Assembly: GCA_945878925.1 (NCBI GenBank)
Contig: CAMDXE010000001.1
Coordinates: 1-55,686 of the forward strand
Length of the DNA stretch: 55,686 nucleotides
Reading direction: 5' to 3'
Origin: Chitinophaga pinensis
GTDB lineage: Bacteria; Bacteroidota; Bacteroidia; NS11-12g; UBA9320
The notes beneath the pieces are model-generated. The model made no database searches, was not told where the DNA came from, and saw only the letters and a program-made list of their open reading frames with translations. The position numbers were made by a program, and so were the translations under genes. The first letter of the stretch is position 1. Each line of letters opens with the position of its first letter. Shown here piece after piece: positions 29,640-40,101 of the stretch.

Positions 29640-31949
29640 CTAAGCTACTTTTTGTTGATATAAATGTTTCTGAAATTCTATAAACAACGAACTAATGTTT
29701 GCAACATCACCTAATATGTCTTTTGCGTCTTCTAACGATTGATATTTATTTATCAGCAAGATTGGTAATTTATCTTGGTCAAGTTCTTCCACACCAGTTT
29801 CAATGTATTTGCTGAGTATAAATTCGATGAATTCTTTTTGATTGCTATCTAACAAAGCAAAGATTCTATTTTGAGCAATTGCTACTCGGTGTTCTCTAGT
29901 AATTGGGGCAACAGAGAAAGATAGATATTCCAATACATCGAATAGATCACTTTTTTCACAATCCACTACTTTTTGCAATTGGGCAAGCTCCTCTTTGCCG
30001 AATCCGGCCGCTTCCATTTTGTCGAGCAATGCTTTTCGGGTATTTGGTACCGACCAAATTTTTCGAAGTTCTTCTTCATTTTTAAAAAATTCAGGGATCG
30101 ATCCGTATAAATTAGTTAGAAATTCTTGTGTGGTAATGGGTGTTCCATCGGCACTGAAAAATGAAGTTTGAACAGAATGTGTAATCTGATGTTCTTTCCC
30201 GTTCCGCAATTTTATCTTCAGTTTTACTTTTGGTTCATAAGGTACATCAATATCTATTACTATACGATCATCCAATTCTGGCTTTGGTTTATTGGTTTCA
30301 GTTACAGGTTCTTCCGGCTCACCATCCCATTCGGGGTCGTTAAAATGGTGGTAGGCGTTCACAAAATCATATATCGTAAAGAAGTCTTTGCCATCAAAGA
30401 GGCGTGTGCCTCGCCCAACAATCTGCTTAAACTCAATCATTGAGTTTACTGGCCGCATTAATATAATGTTCCTGATATTTCGGGCATCAACCCCTGTTGA
30501 AAGCTTTTGCGATGTTGTTAAAATTGTCGGGATCGTTTTTTCGTTATCCTGAAACTCACGCAAATATTGCTCTCCACGCTCACCGTCATTAGCTGTTACA
30601 CGTACACAATAGTTTGTATCCTTACTTTGTTTGTATTGATTTATCAAATCTCTTACTGCTGCAGCGTGATCTTGCGTTGCACAGAAAACGATGGTCTTCT
30701 CTTTTTGGTTAATTAAATCCATAAAGATATTAACCCGTTTAGCTTCACGTTCTTTAATCTCTATTATTTTATTGAAATCGGCTTCTTTGTATGTTTTGCC
30801 TTCTTCAATAGCGCCCTCCATAATGTTATCGTCCGATTTATAGGTGTACTCATCCAACGAAGTTGTTACTCGTTTTACTTTAAACGGAGTAAGGAAACCA
30901 TCGTTAATCCCATCCTTAAGAGAATAAGAATATACAGGATCACCAAAATATTTATAGGTGTCCACATTTTCATTGCGTTTGGGAGTGGCAGTTAACCCAA
31001 TTTGAACTGCTGGAGAAAAGTATTCGAGAATGCCTCTCCATGTACTTTCATTATTTGCGCCACCACGGTGACACTCATCAATGATAATGAAATCAAAATA
31101 ATCTTTAGGATATGAACCGAAGTAGGGCGTGTCGTTCGGACCGCTCATAAACGTTTGAAAAATAGTAAAGAAGATACTTCCGTTTGTTGGAACTACACCT
31201 TTTTTCTTTATCTCTTTTGGACTAATACGCACAAGCGCATCTTCTGGGAAAGCAGAAAATGCGTTATATGCCTGGTCTGCCAGAATGTTTCTATCAGCTA
31301 AAAACAAGATGCGAGGTCGGCGAGATGCTTCGTAACTTGTATTCCAGCGAGTTTGAAAAAGTTTCCAGGCTATTTGAAAGGCGATGAATGTTTTTCCGGT
31401 GCCGGTAGCAAGAGTAAGTAAAATGCGATTTTGTTTACTAGAGATGGCATCCATTGTTTTTTCAACGGCTGTTTCCTGATAAAACCGTGTGCCTTTTGAA
31501 CCACCAACATCTTCATATGGTAAAATGGAAAACTTATTTTGCCAATCGTTTTTTACCGGAAAAGTAATCTTCCATAATTCGTCTGGTGTGTGAAAATTTT
31601 CTGCCGAAGATTCGGCAGCAGTTTCCATATTGATATAATAAATCTCTTTTCCGTTTGCAGCATAAGCATTCTCGATTTTTAATTTCTCGGCATAGTCCTT
31701 TGCTTGTTGTACACCTTCACCAACCACGCACGCATCGCTCTTTGCTTCAACTATAGCTAATTTCCGACCTTTATATGCCAATACATAATCAGCAAACTTT
31801 GGATTTTTGCGTTTGCCTCCCACTTGTATTTTGCCTGGTGCAATTGGATATTCGCGATGTACCTTTACATCGGCATTTGCCTTAGCATCCCAGCCGTTTT
31901 CTTTTAGCTTGGGGTCAATAAGTTCAGCTCTTGTTTCTGCTTCGTTCAT
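29640..31949 (-). CDS. hsdR: Type I restriction enzyme R subunit (EcoEI_R_C-type C-terminal domain)
   Basis: N-terminal MNEAETRAELIDPKLKENGW with D...VEAK nuclease motif, LATGTGKT Walker A, IIIDECHR, QIVGRGTR, and a C-terminal helical EcoEI-R-like domain. Confidence 0.92.
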   Translation of the reverse strand: MNEAETRAELIDPKLKENGWDAKANADVKVHREYPIAPGKIQVGGKRKNPKFADYVLAYKGRKLAIVEAKSDACVVGEGVQQAKDYAEKLKIENAYAANGKEIYYINMETAAESSAENFHTPDELWKITFPVKNDWQNKFSILPYEDVGGSKGTRFYQETAVEKTMDAISSKQNRILLTLATGTGKTFIAFQIAWKLFQTRWNTSYEASRRPRILFLADRNILADQAYNAFSAFPEDALVRISPKEIKKKGVVPTNGSIFFTIFQTFMSGPNDTPYFGSYPKDYFDFIIIDECHRGGANNESTWRGILEYFSPAVQIGLTATPKRNENVDTYKYFGDPVYSYSLKDGINDGFLTPFKVKRVTTSLDEYTYKSDDNIMEGAIEEGKTYKEADFNKIIEIKEREAKRVNIFMDLINQKEKTIVFCATQDHAAAVRDLINQYKQSKDTNYCVRVTANDGERGEQYLREFQDNEKTIPTILTTSQKLSTGVDARNIRNIILMRPVNSMIEFKQIVGRGTRLFDGKDFFTIYDFVNAYHHFNDPEWDGEPEEPVTETNKPKPELDDRIVIDIDVPYEPKVKLKIKLRNGKEHQITHSVQTSFFSADGTPITTQEFLTNLYGSIPEFFKNEEELRKIWSVPNTRKALLDKMEAAGFGKEELAQLQKVVDCEKSDLFDVLEYLSFSVAPITREHRVAIAQNRIFALLDSNQKEFIEFILSKYIETGVEELDQDKLPILLINKYQSLEDAKDILGDVANISSLFIEFQKHLYQQKVA

Positions 31950-32836
31950 TGTTCGGTTGGTTTATATTCTTCTGCAATCATCCATTTTTCACGCATGCGA
32001 AAGGCGGGAATGGTTTGCCTTTTGGCTTTATTGGCAGCCACGTTTGGTTTTATGGCTTTTTGCGAAGCCCATATTGAAAGTGGAATTATTTTTTTTGCCG
32101 TAAGTATGGTTATGCGTTTGTGTAATGTTTCTTGCAACAGCAAGGCAAATAACTGGGTAAAACCACCAAATTTCATAGTTGACCGGTAATTGGTAAACAT
32201 GGGATAGTATTCGGTATGCTTGCTTTTGTTTTGAATGATTATAGGCGGTAAACCTGCATTCATTAACTGTAAGTTTATAAGCACTCTCCCTATTCGTCCA
32301 TTACCGTCAACAAAAGGGTGAATGGTTTCAAACTCTGCATGAAAGTGTGCAATGGAATCTAAAAAATAGCTGGTTTTATTTTGGTTGTAATTGTTCACCA
32401 ACTCTTGCATAAGTGTAGGTACAAACTGCGGATTTGCACCCAAGTGATTGCCAACCCGTACCCATTCTTTGCCACTGCGAAAACGACCAGCAATGTTGTC
32501 GTCAATGTGGGTGAGCAAGGTTTTATGCAAACTTAAAATGAGTTTGATGTTAAATTTGGATTTGTTTTTTTCTAATTCGGTTTCGGTGAGTTTTGCCAAG
32601 TTTTTGGCTTCGTACACCTCACGTACATTTACTTTTCGCTCTAAACTGCTACCCGAAAGAATTTTTTCGGTGTCTTCTAAGGTAAGTGTTGAGTTTTCGA
32701 TAGCGTTGGAGTTGTAAACCATTTCAGGAATTTCGGCTAGGGCTATTTCTTTCAGCAAAGGCTCATTGCCCGTTGCCAAGTATATGTATTGCTGGTGCAA
32801 TGCCGCAATTTTATCTTTTGTGGTTTGGTTTATCAT
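31946..32836 (-). CDS. Fic-family protein (class II, N-terminal inhibitory motif) embedded in the hsd operon
   Basis: Has the canonical Fic motif HPFVDGNGRIGR and the inhibitory-helix motif SNAIEN, matching (S/T)xxxE(G/N). Its stop overlaps the hsdR ATG (ATGA, 31946-31949). Confidence 0.9.
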   Translation of the reverse strand: MINQTTKDKIAALHQQYIYLATGNEPLLKEIALAEIPEMVYNSNAIENSTLTLEDTEKILSGSSLERKVNVREVYEAKNLAKLTETELEKNKSKFNIKLILSLHKTLLTHIDDNIAGRFRSGKEWVRVGNHLGANPQFVPTLMQELVNNYNQNKTSYFLDSIAHFHAEFETIHPFVDGNGRIGRVLINLQLMNAGLPPIIIQNKSKHTEYYPMFTNYRSTMKFGGFTQLFALLLQETLHKRITILTAKKIIPLSIWASQKAIKPNVAANKAKRQTIPAFRMREKWMIAEEYKPTEQ

Positions 32837-32884
32837 TTTATGCTTTTATATTTACCGTGAAAACATATGTAAAAATACGTATTT

Positions 32885-34125
32885 TCACGATAAATTACTA
32901 GTTGCTGTTTTTGCCACGGCAGGCTCTCTACAAGTTAATTGCCCGCTAAACGCTTTTTGCAAAACGGATTTTTTGAGTTCTTCCAAATCATTTATTTTTT
33001 GCTGATATATGGCTTCTAATTTTTGGGTTTCGGTTAAAAGTGCTTCCAAATTTTGAACAATGGTTTGTTGTTCTTTTAACGGTGAAAGATTGTAAATTTT
33101 AAAAGCCCTAATATCTTTCATATTGATATGCTCAACTGTCGCACCTGTTGAATGTGATAATAATTGCTCTTGCACATCCTTTGAAAGAATTAAATGGGCT
33201 AAGAATTTTGATATTAGTTTATTCTTTTTAGGTCTAATCAATACTGTTCTTTGTCCTAAGCAAACTTTTACATTTTCTGGTATTACAGCAATGTTACCTG
33301 CTGGTGCTTCCCTCGCTAAAATCAAATCATCTCCTTGCGGAATTGCACGTCTTGTCCATTCATTATATGTCTTTTCTGAAACTCTATTAACACCTTCTAA
33401 AATCAAAACACCTTTTCCAATATTAGGCGTCCGTATTGATGGATAGCCTGTTTCTTGTGTGGGTGCAGTTTTATGTTCACAATCAACAATAAGTTCGCAA
33501 AGGCTGTCTAAAGTTTCAAATTTTGAACCGTGCAATTTGTTCTCAAAAACTGCTTTCAAATAACTTTCAAAAAGTTCCTTGGCGTTTTTGAGATTTTGTT
33601 CGGCATTGGCTTTTGCCTTGGCTATGGCGGCAAAGGTTTCATCTAATATGGCTACTATGCGTTGTTGCTCGGGAAGAGATGGAAGGGGGATTTCAATATC
33701 CTTCAATCTGCTAATTGGGATGAAGTCAATTGTTGCTTTTCCACTTAAATTTGATAATGTATCTTTTAAGGTAGAACTGAAATACAAAAGGAACATTGGA
33801 TACATTCCTTTTTGCTTTTTATGACCAATCCATTGAACTGCTGATTTGTTGTCAACTCAATTTCAGTAATTGCATACTCTCCAATAGATGCAGTGCAACA
33901 AAGAAGTATAGCATCTACTGGTAAAACTCTTAGTTTTTTAAGTGCTGCTTGTGTAACTTTTTGTTTTGTATCGCTAATAATTCTTCCCTGTTCTCTAATA
34001 TCATCAATAGTAAACCAAGGGAAATCCCCTCCTTCCCAAAAATCTTTGTTTGTTCTTAATGGCGTTGAGCCATTAACTATATCACAAACGTCTCCCAACT
34101 TTTTTATTTCCCAACCTTGTTTCAT
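32885..34125 (-). pseudogene. hsdS: Type I R-M specificity subunit, split by a frameshift into 119-aa and 306-aa ORFs
   Basis: ORF 33766-34125 starts MKQGWEIKKLGDVCDIVNGSTP (HsdS TRD1). ORF 32885-33805 carries YPMFLLYF, the central LPSLPEQQRIVAILDE repeat, TRD2 and the distal PLKEQQTIVQNLEALL repeat. The frames switch within the T5GCT5 tract at 33809-33820. Confidence 0.8.
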
Positions 34126-34177
34126 ATAAGTTCCAAAATAGAGTTTAAAATATTTGTTACCGAGTTTTTATCCATTT
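34126..34177 (-). pseudogene. Remnant of an hsdM 3' end (about 17 codons) fused by ATGA to the hsdS start
   Basis: The minus-strand translation KMDKNSVTNILNSILELI* parallels the C-terminus of the intact HsdM (KALDKESAGILNSILELI*). The DNA CATATAAGTTCCAAAATAGAGTTTAAAAT matches CATATCAATTCCAAAATTGAGTTTAAAAT at 35010-35038. Confidence 0.7.
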
Positions 34178-34179
34178 TA

Positions 34180-34203
34180 GTCAGAATTAGGATTTTTAAG
34201 ATT
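34180..34203. repeat. Left inverted-repeat arm of the GxxExxY cassette
   Basis: See the cassette entry. Matches the right arm at 23/24 positions. Confidence 0.85.
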
Positions 34204-34219
34204 TGTTGATTTTAGGATT

Positions 34220-34615
34220 TTATTTGACATAATCTTTGTTTTCAGGATGATTGATGTTGTATACTCTTTTAAATTCTAAACTTTTTGCACCAAAATTTAT
34301 CAGCAATCCAATGGGCAGGTTATAGGCTTGGCAATAATTCATTGCCTGTGCCAAATGCACATCTTCCAATTTTGTCAAGGCCTTTAGTTCAACCATTATA
34401 TTTTCTTCTACAAAAAAATCAACCCTGCGTGTACCAATGTCTATGCCTTCATAGCATATAGTCATTTCCATTTCTCGCTGAAACCCCAAATCTTGTTTTT
34501 GCATTTCAATGGCCAATGCCCTTTGGTAAATGACTTCCTGAAAGCCATTGCCTAAAGTGCCGTGTACTTTCATTGCACAGCCAATAATTTTATGCGTTAT
34601 TTCTTCGTATTTCAT
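34220..34615 (-). CDS. GxxExxY family protein (PD-(D/E)XK-like)
   Basis: 131 aa, with HKIIGCAMKVHGTLGNGFQEVIYQRALAIEM (G-F-Q-E-V-I-Y is the GxxExxY motif), VDFFVE and MVELKA. Confidence 0.85.
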   Translation of the reverse strand: MKYEEITHKIIGCAMKVHGTLGNGFQEVIYQRALAIEMQKQDLGFQREMEMTICYEGIDIGTRRVDFFVEENIMVELKALTKLEDVHLAQAMNYCQAYNLPIGLLINFGAKSLEFKRVYNINHPENKDYVK

Positions 34616-34644
34616 TCTCTTTCTTTTTAATCCTATTATCTATT

Positions 34645-34668
34645 AATCTTAAAAATCCTAATTCAGAC
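34645..34668. repeat. Right inverted-repeat arm of the GxxExxY cassette
   Basis: See the cassette entry. Matches the left arm at 23/24 positions. Confidence 0.85.
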
Positions 34669-34800
34669 GTGGTTTGCCCATATTCTAAACTATGTGCCTT
34701 GTTTTGATTTTACACGGTACCCTAATGAGATGATTACATCGAGGTTGTAGAATTCCACTTGGCGTTCAACCCTTCTGCCACCTTCATTTTGAACCGGTCG
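34669..34800 (-). pseudogene. RhuM-family (virulence RhuM-like) gene fragment with an in-frame stop, truncated at the cassette IR
   Basis: An alternative minus-strand frame reads RPVQNEGGRRVERQVEFYNLDVIISLGYRVKSKQGT*FRIWANH. This matches the RhuM hallmark YNLDVIISVGYRVKSxxGTxFRxWA. The frame ends exactly where the IR begins (34668). Confidence 0.6.
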
Positions 34801-35012
34801 CAATTTGCGACCAGTTCATTTGTTTCAAGGTCATTTAATTGAAATCGAAATACTTCAAGGAAACGATCAATGTTTCTTTTTACTTGCTCATTTAATCTTT
34901 TTACTTCCACCTTATACATTTCAGCTAAATCACGGTCAATCATCACCTGCATTTCTCTTATAGTAAAAATGTGGTTTTCGATAGTTGAAAGTGTTAGTTG
35001 ATTTTTGCTCAT
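34734..35012 (-). CDS. ORF6N-domain protein, truncated (92 aa)
   Basis: IFTIREMQVMIDRDLAEMYKVEVKRLNEQVKRNIDRF..FRFQL is the ORF6N signature. It lacks the usual C-terminal half. The start overlaps the hsdM stop (ATGA at 35009-35012). Confidence 0.7.
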   Translation of the reverse strand: MSKNQLTLSTIENHIFTIREMQVMIDRDLAEMYKVEVKRLNEQVKRNIDRFLEVFRFQLNDLETNELVANCDRFKMKVAEGLNAKWNSTTSM

Positions 35013-36463
35013 ATCAATTCCAAAATTGAGTTTAAAATGCCCGCACTTTCTTTATCTAGAGCTTTCATTTCTTCTAATATCTCCTGCGGTTGGCGTAAGG
35101 CAACTTCTGCTTTTTTATTAGGGTTTTTAGCACTTAGGTCAAAGGTTGTTTGGTCAATGTCTTTTACATATATGCTCCAAGAGTTTTCACTTTCTCCTTT
35201 TGTTTGTTGTAGTAATACAAATTCAGCCAAATCTTTTTCGTTCAGGGCATTGGTCTTGCCAAGGTTTCTATCCAAGTTCAGTTGGTAAAACCAAACTTTT
35301 TTGGTGCTGCTGCCTTTTTCAAAAAACAACACTACCGTTTTTACGCCTGCACCTGTAAATGTTCCGCCTGGCAAATCCAATACGGTATGCAGGTTGCAAT
35401 TTTCCAACAGCAACTTTCGCAAACTCACAGAGGCATTGTCGGTATTGCTCAAAAAAGTATTCTTAATTACAACACCTGCTTTGCCGCCTGCTTTTAGTAT
35501 TTTAATAAAGTGCTGCAAAAACAAAGAGGCCGTTTCGCCAGTTTTTATAGGGAAGTTTTGTTGCACCTCTGCACGTTCTTTTCCGCCAAATGGAGGATTA
35601 GCCAACACTATATCGTAACGGTCTTTTTCCTGTATGTCGGCAAGGTTTTCGGCAAGGGTATTGGTATGCACAATGTTTGGTGCCTCTATACCATGAAAAA
35701 TCATATTCATTGTGCCAATAATGTAAGCCAATGATTTTTTCTCTTTTCCGTAAAAAGTTTTTTTCTGCAAGGTGGTAACATCGGCGGTGGTAAGTTTTTT
35801 GCTGTGTTTTAAATATTCAAAGGCTTCTACCAAGAAACCCGCTGAACCTACTGCACCGTCATAAATTTTTTGTCCTATTTCGGGGGCTACCACTTTTACT
35901 ATGGTTTTAATCAAAGGTCGTGGCGTGTAATATTCCCCACCATTACGCCCAGCGTTACCCATATTTTTTATCTTGTCCTCATATAGGTGGCTCATTTCGT
36001 GCTTTTCAGCGTGGGTTCTAAAACGCAGTTCGTCAATGCGGTTAATTACCTCTCGTAAATTGTAGCCGCTTTGTATGCGGTTTTTTAGTTCACTAAAAAT
36101 CTCACCTATTTTATATTCAATGGTATCTGCACTTTCGGCATCGGCTTTAAATTTTTTGAGGTATGGGAACAATTTAATGTTCACAAAATCGGCAAGGTCA
36201 TCGCCAGTTAATGCTTTGTGGTGGTCAAGTTTGCCATCTTTGTCTTTGGGCGTTGCCCAAATCGTCCACTGAAATTCTTTTGCAATAATGTTGGTATAAG
36301 TCTTACCACTTAGTTCGGCTGCTGTGGCTTTGTCTTTCTCCAAGTCGTCCAAATATTTAAGGAACAAAACCCAAGAAGTCTGCTCTACATAATCCAATTC
36401 ACTTCCGCAACCTGCGTCCTTATGAAGTATGTCGTCTATATTTTTAAAGGTTTGTTCAAACAT
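35009..36463 (-). CDS. hsdM: Type I R-M DNA methyltransferase subunit
   Basis: Has an HsdM_N-like N-terminus (LFLKYLDD), motif I DGAVGSAGFL and motif IV LANPPFGGKE. Confidence 0.92.
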   Translation of the reverse strand: MFEQTFKNIDDILHKDAGCGSELDYVEQTSWVLFLKYLDDLEKDKATAAELSGKTYTNIIAKEFQWTIWATPKDKDGKLDHHKALTGDDLADFVNIKLFPYLKKFKADAESADTIEYKIGEIFSELKNRIQSGYNLREVINRIDELRFRTHAEKHEMSHLYEDKIKNMGNAGRNGGEYYTPRPLIKTIVKVVAPEIGQKIYDGAVGSAGFLVEAFEYLKHSKKLTTADVTTLQKKTFYGKEKKSLAYIIGTMNMIFHGIEAPNIVHTNTLAENLADIQEKDRYDIVLANPPFGGKERAEVQQNFPIKTGETASLFLQHFIKILKAGGKAGVVIKNTFLSNTDNASVSLRKLLLENCNLHTVLDLPGGTFTGAGVKTVVLFFEKGSSTKKVWFYQLNLDRNLGKTNALNEKDLAEFVLLQQTKGESENSWSIYVKDIDQTTFDLSAKNPNKKAEVALRQPQEILEEMKALDKESAGILNSILELI

Positions 36464-39237: not shown

Positions 39238-39354
39238 TAAATGAAGGATACAATATTAAATAATATTCAGAAAGCTGGTGAAGAAAGTTTGCCCAATATT
39301 ATCAAAAAAAATTAGTAGAAATGGTAAAAACAGGATCGCCATTCAAGAGAATTA

Positions 39355-39618
39355 TCAACTCTGATAATGACCATAAAGTGAGTGAACTACAATCTGTAAA
39401 TCTTCAACCTTATAAACAAGCCTATGTTCAAGACTAATTCTGCGAGACCAATATCCGCTATAATTGGCTTTGAGAGGCTCGGGTTGACCAAGGCCCGAAA
39501 AAGGTGTTTTAGATGTATTTTCTAAAAGGGTATAAATTTTTTTTACTGTCTTCAAATCATTTTTAACCCACCAGCCCAAATCTTGCCAGGCTTTTGGCAT
39601 AAAATAAATCTCACGCAT
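39355..39618 (-). CDS. yoeB: Txe/YoeB-family toxin (RelE superfamily mRNA interferase)
   Basis: Has AWQDLGWW, PFSGLGQPEPLKANYSGYWSRRISLEHRLVYKV and LYGHY. Confidence 0.88.
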   Translation of the reverse strand: MREIYFMPKAWQDLGWWVKNDLKTVKKIYTLLENTSKTPFSGLGQPEPLKANYSGYWSRRISLEHRLVYKVEDLQIVVHSLYGHYQS

Positions 39619-39820
39619 TGACCATTTCTCTTAATTCCTTCAAATTAAGGGATGTCGGTTTTATTCTATTTTTTTCGTAATTCTCAATGCTTTGAAGAAT
39701 AAGAGGATTGGTTATCTCATCAACCGCTACCTGTTTAACGTTTTTTATAAAAGAAACAGACTTAAAAAATGCTTCAGCAATTTCAGTTTTATTGTCAGCA
39801 ATTTCCACTATATATTTCAT
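39611..39820 (-). CDS. Putative cognate antitoxin (no recognisable YefM/Phd signature)
   Basis: A 69-aa ORF directly upstream of yoeB, overlapping it by 8 nt. The assignment rests on position only. Confidence 0.55.
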   Translation of the reverse strand: MKYIVEIADNKTEIAEAFFKSVSFIKNVKQVAVDEITNPLILQSIENYEKNRIKPTSLNLKELREMVNA

Positions 39821-39849
39821 ATCAAGATTTATTATTATACACTTCTACA

Positions 39850-39857
39850 CAAAAATA
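39850..39857 (-). promoter_or_regulatory. Candidate -7 box (TATTTTTG on minus strand) for the TA operon
   Basis: Plus-strand CAAAAATA lies 30-37 nt upstream of the ATG at 39820. Confidence 0.4.
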
Positions 39858-40101
39858 AGCTGATTTTGGCATTTTCTAAATAGGGAAAATTAATTGTAAG
39901 GATAATTAAGATATTTGAGGCAAGAGTTTTAGTTGTTAAGTTGACGTGACCACTTCCCATTCACAAGGTTATTCAGGTGAAACAACGACCGGGAAGTCCA
40001 AAGGAGTGCTTTCGATAAGGGATAATTTTGCTTTGCTGTCAATGGTCAATAAAAATCTTTGTTGTTTCAAAACCATTCTCGGTTTTATTAAGATTTGCCC
40101 A

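Follow-up and report, generated by a model that had tools for sequence, protein, structure and literature searches.

A predicted self-inhibited Fic enzyme at the hsdS-hsdR junction of a type IB restriction operon

Why should a gene for a Fic enzyme be lodged between the specificity and restriction genes of a type I restriction-modification operon? The question is raised by a 55,686-nt stretch of Chitinophaga pinensis DNA (contig CAMDXE010000001.1; hereafter the window, whose numbering is used throughout), in which the region 29640-36463 carries, on the minus strand and in this order, hsdM, an ORF6N gene, a GxxExxY/PDDEXK_3 gene, hsdS, fic and hsdR. This single array had been recognized in a first-pass annotation of the DNA, and it is borne out by the listing of open reading frames (ORFs) and by scans with Pfam, NCBIfam and PADLOC. 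In the prr locus of Escherichia coli, the gene prrC sits between hsdS and hsdR, and on that parallel it had been proposed that Fic is an effector masked by the Hsd complex or sensing its state. The answer that we favor, with a probability of about 0.6, is that fic is an autonomous, self-inhibited and probably self-regulated cargo gene of the PDC-S04/SoFic kind, occupying a slot in a decaying type IB operon.

The fic gene (31946-32836, minus strand) encodes a protein of 296 residues with a Pfam Fic match at 1e-21. Its catalytic motif had been described as intact, and so it is: HPFVDGNGRIGR (residues 173-184; 32285-32320, minus strand) fits HxFx(D/E)GNGRxxR and is nearly invariant in family alignments. 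Class II Fic enzymes carry (S/T)xxxE(G/N) on a helix of the same chain N-terminal to the core, and this is what we find in SNAIEN (residues 43-48, with Glu47; 32693-32710, minus strand), which phmmer aligns to TVAIEG of FICD, which is invariant or nearly so in family alignments, and which is located on helix 36-46 of the structural model. That model, built by AlphaFold from 34 sequences, has a predicted local distance difference test score (pLDDT) of 94 and a predicted template modeling score of 0.91. FICD/HYPE provides the nearest sequences of solved structure, and Foldseek matched the model to FICD with a template modeling score of 0.73 at probability 1.00, as well as to BtFic (3cuc) and CdFic (4x2c); at 27-29% identity, these are the best matches in structure and sequence. 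Because SNAIEN aligns on the inhibitory motif of FICD and the model matches all three enzymes, we assign the window protein to the class II, FICD-like enzymes and predict it to be self-inhibited. FICD differs in being a eukaryotic enzyme of the endoplasmic reticulum with a TPR domain, and in having neither a DNA-binding tail nor a link to restriction.

A tail of the former type may be present in the window protein. On the AlphaFold model, DSSP delineates a C-terminal beta-alpha-alpha-beta-beta module (residues 247-290, its secondary-structure elements falling at 250-288; 31967-32098, minus strand), which carries a conserved NKAKRQTIPAFR...W motif in the family alignment and appears to be winged-helix-like. 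Because a Pfam scan of the 64-residue tail gave no match and a profile search of PDB sequences with the module gave nothing significant, this assignment rests on the topology of the full-length model; a single-sequence AlphaFold model of the tail was poor (pLDDT 70).

Fic genes in restriction operons are already catalogued, and the gene content of the locus is not new, as the first-pass annotation itself had held. Against the PADLOC library, whose models are given without curated cut-offs, the window Fic matched three PDC-S04 models at E values of 1.5e-37 to 2.6e-34 and the SoFic model at 1.5e-32. SoFic, the Fic of Shewanella oneidensis, is reportedly a defence system that consists of a single gene (Millman et al. 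2022). The best of the PDC-S04 matches covers profile positions 28-216 of 244, and a lone Fic gene inside a type I operon, here between hsdS and hsdR, is the defining basis of these candidates; the gene has both the model matches and the position of a PDC-S04 member. PDC-S04 is, however, a class of untested candidates, and its models leave out the C-terminal module predicted here. Payne et al., whose guilt-by-embedding analysis of BREX, DISARM and type I systems yielded 145 candidates among the genes nested in them, discuss PrrC as a model of backup defence (bioRxiv 10.1101/2024.01.29.577857). The name PDC-S04 was not found in the available portion of their supplements, and neither the palindrome nor the solo derivatives described below are mentioned in the available portions of their text and supplements. 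The general idea of embedded backup-defence cargo, which had been put forward for this locus, was already in print; its more specific form, an effector masked by Hsd proteins, is not supported by the comparisons that follow.

The likeness to SoFic extends to class II architecture with an inhibitory glutamate and to a stand-alone gene; in addition, SoFic has a C-terminal DNA-binding module and binds its own promoter, properties that are predicted for the window Fic. The two are not orthologues. The window protein scored 35.9 bits against the NCBIfam SoFic equivalog, for which the cut-off is 550, and it aligned to the SoFic chains in the PDB over 70 residues of the active-site region only (E 1.6e-6). 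It gave no Fic_N match in the Pfam scan, its core is nearer to FICD, and its module is of about 45 residues, whereas SoFic has a winged helix-turn-helix domain at residues 281-432.

The best clue to how fic may be controlled is a 34-bp palindrome, CGTGAAAA-N18-TTTTCACG (32856-32889, minus strand), which ends 19 nt before the fic ATG, includes the hsdS stop codon in its left half-site, and is a candidate operator. Homology of the window DNA to about 35 Bacteroidota loci is limited to a leader of about 60 nt plus the fic ORF, and across these loci the conservation of the palindrome exceeds that of the fic coding sequence. With at most one mismatch per half-site, it occurs at 56 of the 80 fic genes evaluated, in several phyla, among them copies from Saccharibacteria whose proteins are about 60% identical. 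The N18 spacing between the 8+8 half-sites is fixed, and the distance from the end of the palindrome to the ATG is 19-27 nt, once 34 nt. Zero matches were found in 711 kb of HsdR-family loci that have no copy of this fic, nor was there another in the window, save one isolated half-site within the fic coding sequence. The spacer of many Bacteroidota copies contains TAnnTTTG, which we take to be the consensus of the Bacteroidetes -7 box; the version in the window is TATTTTTA.

By analogy, the likeliest role of the palindrome would be that of an autoregulatory operator over a putative fic promoter, since SoFic as a dimer binds the promoter of its own gene, at a site within 100 bp of the start codon (bioRxiv 10.64898/2026.07.09.737422), CccR of Yersinia is both a Fic enzyme and a DNA-binding regulator (PMC9755527), and the activity of CbFic2 of Coxiella is switched by DNA binding and dimerisation (PMC10628234). 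The doubling of a Fic enzyme as a DNA-binding regulator, predicted for the window Fic, is what it would share with CccR and CbFic2; these, by contrast, are secreted pathogen effectors of other sequence families and have no restriction context.

The palindrome also turned up in two other settings. In a Saccharibacteria genome (L045:8334-8367; L numbers label the relatives compared), a second copy lies upstream of an unrelated pair of genes, of 239 and 167 residues, that precedes fic, and the pair may be co-regulated with it. On a Fibrimonadaceae contig (L046:1163-2720), the terminal 54 nt or so of fic recur, and within them lies a 34-nt palindromic unit that is present three times, is formed by the codons of fic themselves (CGTGAAAAATGG...GATTTTCACG), and brackets two small, oppositely oriented two-gene cassettes that by eye resemble toxin-antitoxin pairs. 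The repeat may attract insertions as a hot-spot, or it may serve for recombination.

Whether fic needs a restriction system can be judged from its nearest relatives, which at 94-95% identity are solo genes. They lie between ridA and a DUF5723 gene, beside ileS, in many samples, and for one protein this arrangement was recovered on 23 contigs; in a second solo lineage, genes of the rnpA side are followed by fic and then by an ABC/tyrS pair. The ratio of nonsynonymous to synonymous substitution rates (dN/dS) against the window copy is 0.10-0.17 over solo and embedded copies and 0.13-0.17 for the nearest solo copies, from which we conclude that the solo genes are maintained and that fic is tolerated and kept without a restriction system. 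Several solo copies retain the hsdR start (12-50 nt) after the fic stop (ATGAACGAAGCAGAAAC..., MNEAETRAELIDPK), and some retain the final hsdS codons upstream. On a Chlorobiota chromosome (CP065014.1), the order is hsdM (88% identity), 23S_rRNA_IVP, a small Fic gene, hsdS, fic (91%) and, after an ATGA junction, hsdR (68%). These fossils, together with the Chlorobiota operon, indicate that the hsdS-fic-hsdR order is ancestral for the subclade, which, to judge from the sequences compared, has repeatedly shed the restriction genes and kept fic. Downstream of one solo copy (L002:1341-2142) we observed a 111-residue ORF that consists of 28 residues of the HsdR N-terminus and 55 residues of the HsdS C-terminus, followed by a 153-residue ORF that looks by eye like an IS200-like Y1 transposase; the fusion may be what a rearrangement of the ancestral operon left behind.

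Across its wider distribution, this Fic clade has an association with restriction genes that is strong and at the same time facultative. The family comprises more than 8000 clusters at 90% identity and occurs in at least 482 species-level genomes; members at 57-95% identity are found in Bacteroidota, Ignavibacteria/Chlorobiota, Patescibacteria, Verrucomicrobiota-related groups, Campylobacterota, Elusimicrobiota and one alphaproteobacterium. Because a first scan of neighbors, made by phmmer with the Hsd proteins of the window only, missed other type I families, seeds from Pfam-labelled neighbors were added, and the calls were cross-checked by a Pfam scan of 114 neighboring proteins, which span 151 Pfam families. 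Forty-two genome loci have 3 kb or more of sequence on each side of fic; at 13 of them a type I gene occurs no more than 5 kb away, and at 17 a type I or type III gene (2 of 16 among copies of at least 70% identity). By a rough estimate, well under 1% of genes are that close to a type I system, so the enrichment is large. The remaining neighbors include type IIG enzymes, Abi_C, HipA, OLD-like ATPases and integrases, and also UvrA, TPR proteins and peptidases. The expectation that the clade would be flanked by hsd genes therefore holds as an enrichment and fails as an obligate tie, most copies having no hsd gene nearby.

Where hsdR does follow fic, it need not be the same hsdR. A full-length hsdR is present no more than 1 kb downstream, in the orientation of fic, in L018, L023, L024, L059, L074 and L120-L123, and in L023 and L120-L123 fic is again situated between hsdS and hsdR. 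In L018, L023 and L024, a fic at 78-82% identity adjoins an HsdR just 25-26% identical to that of the window. As to how the gene travels, a phage vehicle was considered and dropped: viral contigs held no close relative of the protein, the best match being 36% identical.

Six Saccharibacteria loci (L053, L057, L064, L067, L070 and L078) hold another Fic gene 1-2 kb from the one studied here. Located directly upstream of hsdM (e.g., L053:3056-4213), it encodes a SoFic-type protein of 383-395 residues with Fic_N, Fic and winged-helix matches, and it belongs beside another type I system. Between the two Fic genes lies an Abi_C gene, of 313 residues in four loci and, in L064 and L067, a 261-residue minus-strand gene of another cluster.

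The same association can be viewed from the side of the restriction enzyme, by inspection of the HsdR proteins from metagenomes that are closest to that of the window (80 loci, L126-L205; 64-78% identity). This Fic clade was absent at all 80. Their hsdS-hsdR junction is far from inviolate: it was empty at 23 of 65 evaluable loci and held 0.2-4 kb of cargo, almost always on the operon strand, at the other 42. Commonest was a Schlafen/AlbA_2 plus HATPase_c_4 gene (7 loci); Fic genes of other families made up 5 (some of them SoFic-like), and further cargo included DUF559, 23S_rRNA_IVP, IS200-like transposases, Bro-N and AAA_21 and AAA_13 ATPases, and several genes had no Pfam match.

This survey also bears on the junction of fic and hsdR, where the fic stop and the hsdR ATG had been said to overlap as ATGA and to make the two genes a coupled unit. 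Reading of the sequence confirmed the overlap, but nothing about it is particular to fic. The hsdR start reads (A/T/G)TGAA(C/T) in all 75 evaluable relatives, and in 32 of the 75 an upstream gene, of whatever kind, ends in that TGA. It is thus the slot, and not its occupant, that accounts for the overlap, and we rejected the latter as a sign of a specific tie between Fic and HsdR.

The operon that houses the cassette is, by its sequence, of type IB and the EcoAI family. Its hsdR (29640-31949, minus strand) is intact, encoding 769 residues with Pfam ResIII, HSDR_N and EcoEI_R_C matches, that is, the N-terminal nuclease, SF2 motor and C-terminal tail of a type IB subunit, and it scores 800 bits against the EcoAI/FtnUII type IB equivalog NF046051 (cut-off 550) over residues 1-765. 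The methyltransferase subunit is likewise present: hsdM (35009-36463, minus strand) is intact at 484 residues (Pfam N6_Mtase at 2.7e-62 and HsdM_N; PADLOC MTase_I at 2e-158) and is 88% identical to its counterpart in L120. What is missing is a single intact HsdS with two target-recognition domains. The hsdS gene (32885-34125, minus strand) is split into pieces of 119 (33766-34125) and 306 residues (32885-33805), both of which match Pfam Methylase_S and PADLOC Specificity_I, and whose different frames overlap at 33766-33805. The frameshift, in the AAAAAGCAAAAAGG region (33800-33820, minus strand), is identical in L085, an independently assembled sample that differs from the source contig by 1 nt in 8.5 kb. 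A sequencing error is accordingly unlikely, and phase variation was rejected, the tract consisting of just two A5 runs. The frameshift is probably genuine, and because both assemblies share it, the restriction-modification system is probably not intact.

These observations can be assembled into a mechanism. The gene junctions of the type IB operon would act as cargo slots, in a restriction system that the hsdS frameshift has probably already disabled, and the hsdS-hsdR slot would hold a self-contained cassette of about 1 kb, made up of a leader with promoter and palindromic operator and of a class II, FICD-like Fic. The helix with Glu47 would hold the enzyme off, and a dimer of the winged-helix-like module would bind the palindrome and repress the fic promoter, which in this arrangement would also feed hsdR. 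Upon a cue from infection or stress, Fic would AMPylate an essential host protein, providing single-gene abortive or backup defence of the SoFic/PDC-S04 kind. Under this mechanism, fic would ride in restriction operons because their junctions accept cargo and travel horizontally, and not by way of masking by Hsd proteins.

If instead Fic were guarded in the manner of PrrC, binding by HsdMSR would keep it latent until a phage anti-restriction protein disabled the complex and set it free. The place of fic is that of prrC, the Chlorobiota genome has an equal gene order, the solo copies derive from the hsdS-fic-hsdR order, and the clade is enriched near restriction genes; yet copies 94-95% identical are stable under purifying selection without any hsd gene, closely related Fic proteins adjoin quite different HsdR proteins, the Fic carries an inhibitory glutamate and a candidate operator of its own, and the window gene is intact although hsdS is frameshifted. 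Moreover, PrrC is hardly ever found outside type I systems (Payne et al., bioRxiv 10.1101/2024.01.29.577857), unlike this Fic, with its 13 of 42 loci, its solo lineages and its absence from all 80 close HsdR relatives. The resemblance to PrrC in EcoprrI, a type IC system, comes down to a gene between hsdS and hsdR and to the idea of a second-line effector within a restriction operon; PrrC combines an ABC-ATPase with a nuclease and has no homology to the window protein, which shows only a Fic domain in Pfam, NCBIfam and PADLOC. Since fic persists in solo copies, has an inhibitor built in and is partnered by diverse HsdR proteins, and since hsdS is broken here, masking or sensing through the Hsd complex is not supported, and we regard it as very improbable. 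Scarcely better are the prospects of a controller akin to the C proteins of type II systems, by which the module and palindrome would set the timing or level of hsdR through a shared fic-hsdR transcript. The palindrome does overlap a putative promoter immediately upstream of fic, the two genes are translationally coupled, and a full-length hsdR follows in the loci named above. Against such a controller, most copies, the solo ones included, retain the palindrome without an hsdR downstream, the ATGA overlap is generic to the HsdR family, and an enzyme of 296 residues with conserved catalytic and inhibitory motifs exceeds what mere control would require.

More credible, though still unlikely, is a Fic that has nothing to do with defence, either an autoregulated enzyme tuning a host protein under stress or a mobile persister, for which the restriction context is hitch-hiking. 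Many solo copies lie amid housekeeping genes, the neighbors are heterogeneous, no near relatives occur on the viral contigs, SoFic acts on EF-Tu as a canonical deAMPylase (bioRxiv 10.64898/2026.07.09.737422), and one PDC-S04 gene showed no defence phenotype when tested in its native host (bioRxiv 10.1101/2024.12.20.629700). The strong enrichment near type I, type III and type IIG restriction genes and near Abi_C, HipA and OLD-like genes argues otherwise, as does the protection against T5 conferred by a class II Fic, SoFic (cited in PMC11514479). Least probable of all, in our estimation, is a sensor of DNA occupancy, in which a Fic dimer bound to the palindrome would be both repressed and repressing until a DNA mimic of the Ocr/ArdA type, or another infection cue, stripped it off; stripping would derepress fic-hsdR and switch the enzyme to AMPylation, giving a coupled two-layer defence without contact between Fic and Hsd proteins. 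This scheme, built by analogy, would be compatible with the conserved palindrome, with the precedents of CbFic2 and SoFic, and with the recurrent place of the gene upstream of hsdR.

Our preference for an autonomous cargo gene must be set against several considerations that tell in the other direction. The hsdS-fic-hsdR order is conserved across phyla, and the hsd fossils beside solo copies mean that the restriction context is ancestral, which leaves room for a true functional tie. In L018, an hsdR of another family likewise has the ATGA overlap with fic. On the side of function, the role of the clade in defence is a prediction, the native-host test of a PDC-S04 gene was negative, and the winged helix is a call from predicted topology only.

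The hsdM-hsdS junction of the same operon has also received cargo, part of which had been described as decayed. This was not borne out. A GxxExxY/PD-(D/E)XK cassette (34180-34668, minus strand) contains an intact ORF of 131 residues (34220-34615; PDDEXK_3 at 8e-40, TIGR04256 at 1e-40) bracketed by 40-nt inverted repeats (34180-34219 and 34629-34668) that are 85% complementary. The short piece is the ORF6N gene (34734-35012, minus strand; 92 residues), whose ATG overlaps the hsdM stop and which is probably truncated, in that only the N-terminal part of the profiles is matched (positions 1-62 of 86 in Pfam ORF6N and 1-77 of 177 in PADLOC PDC-S05); homologues occupy the equivalent place in L192 and L201. 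Immediately upstream of the hsdS ATG, the 3' end of hsdM recurs over 30 nt (34122-34151, minus strand; a direct repeat of 35009-35038 at 90% identity that includes the ATGA), from which it follows that both genes were inserted at a former hsdM/hsdS junction. The GxxExxY cassette recurs between fic and hsdR in L023 (81% nucleotide identity), and L201 and L198 have it in their hsdS-hsdR junction (91% amino acid identity); it looks like a small mobile cassette that aims at the junctions of restriction operons.

Outside the operon, the flanks had been given as purQ and unrelated housekeeping genes. The former is indeed on one side; the other has a GT87 gene and a gene without a family match. A YoeB-family toxin gene, preceded by a small partner, is found about 3 kb past hsdM at roughly 39300-39900 (L084:130-595) and forms a further small module of mobile type.

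What is new at this locus lies in its details, namely the palindrome, the short tail predicted to bind DNA, and the solo derivatives with their hsd fossils. One and the same Fic cassette exists both embedded, in the window and in Chlorobiota, and solo beside remnants of hsdS and hsdR, which amounts to a natural experiment, and the conserved 34-bp palindrome offers a direct handle on autoregulation. The hsdS-hsdR junction of type IB operons, occupied at 42 of 65 loci, is useful for the mining of new defence genes. If it were true that the DNA-binding module triggers the enzyme, Fic proteins of this clade would possess a new sensing route, although the present evidence does not require it.

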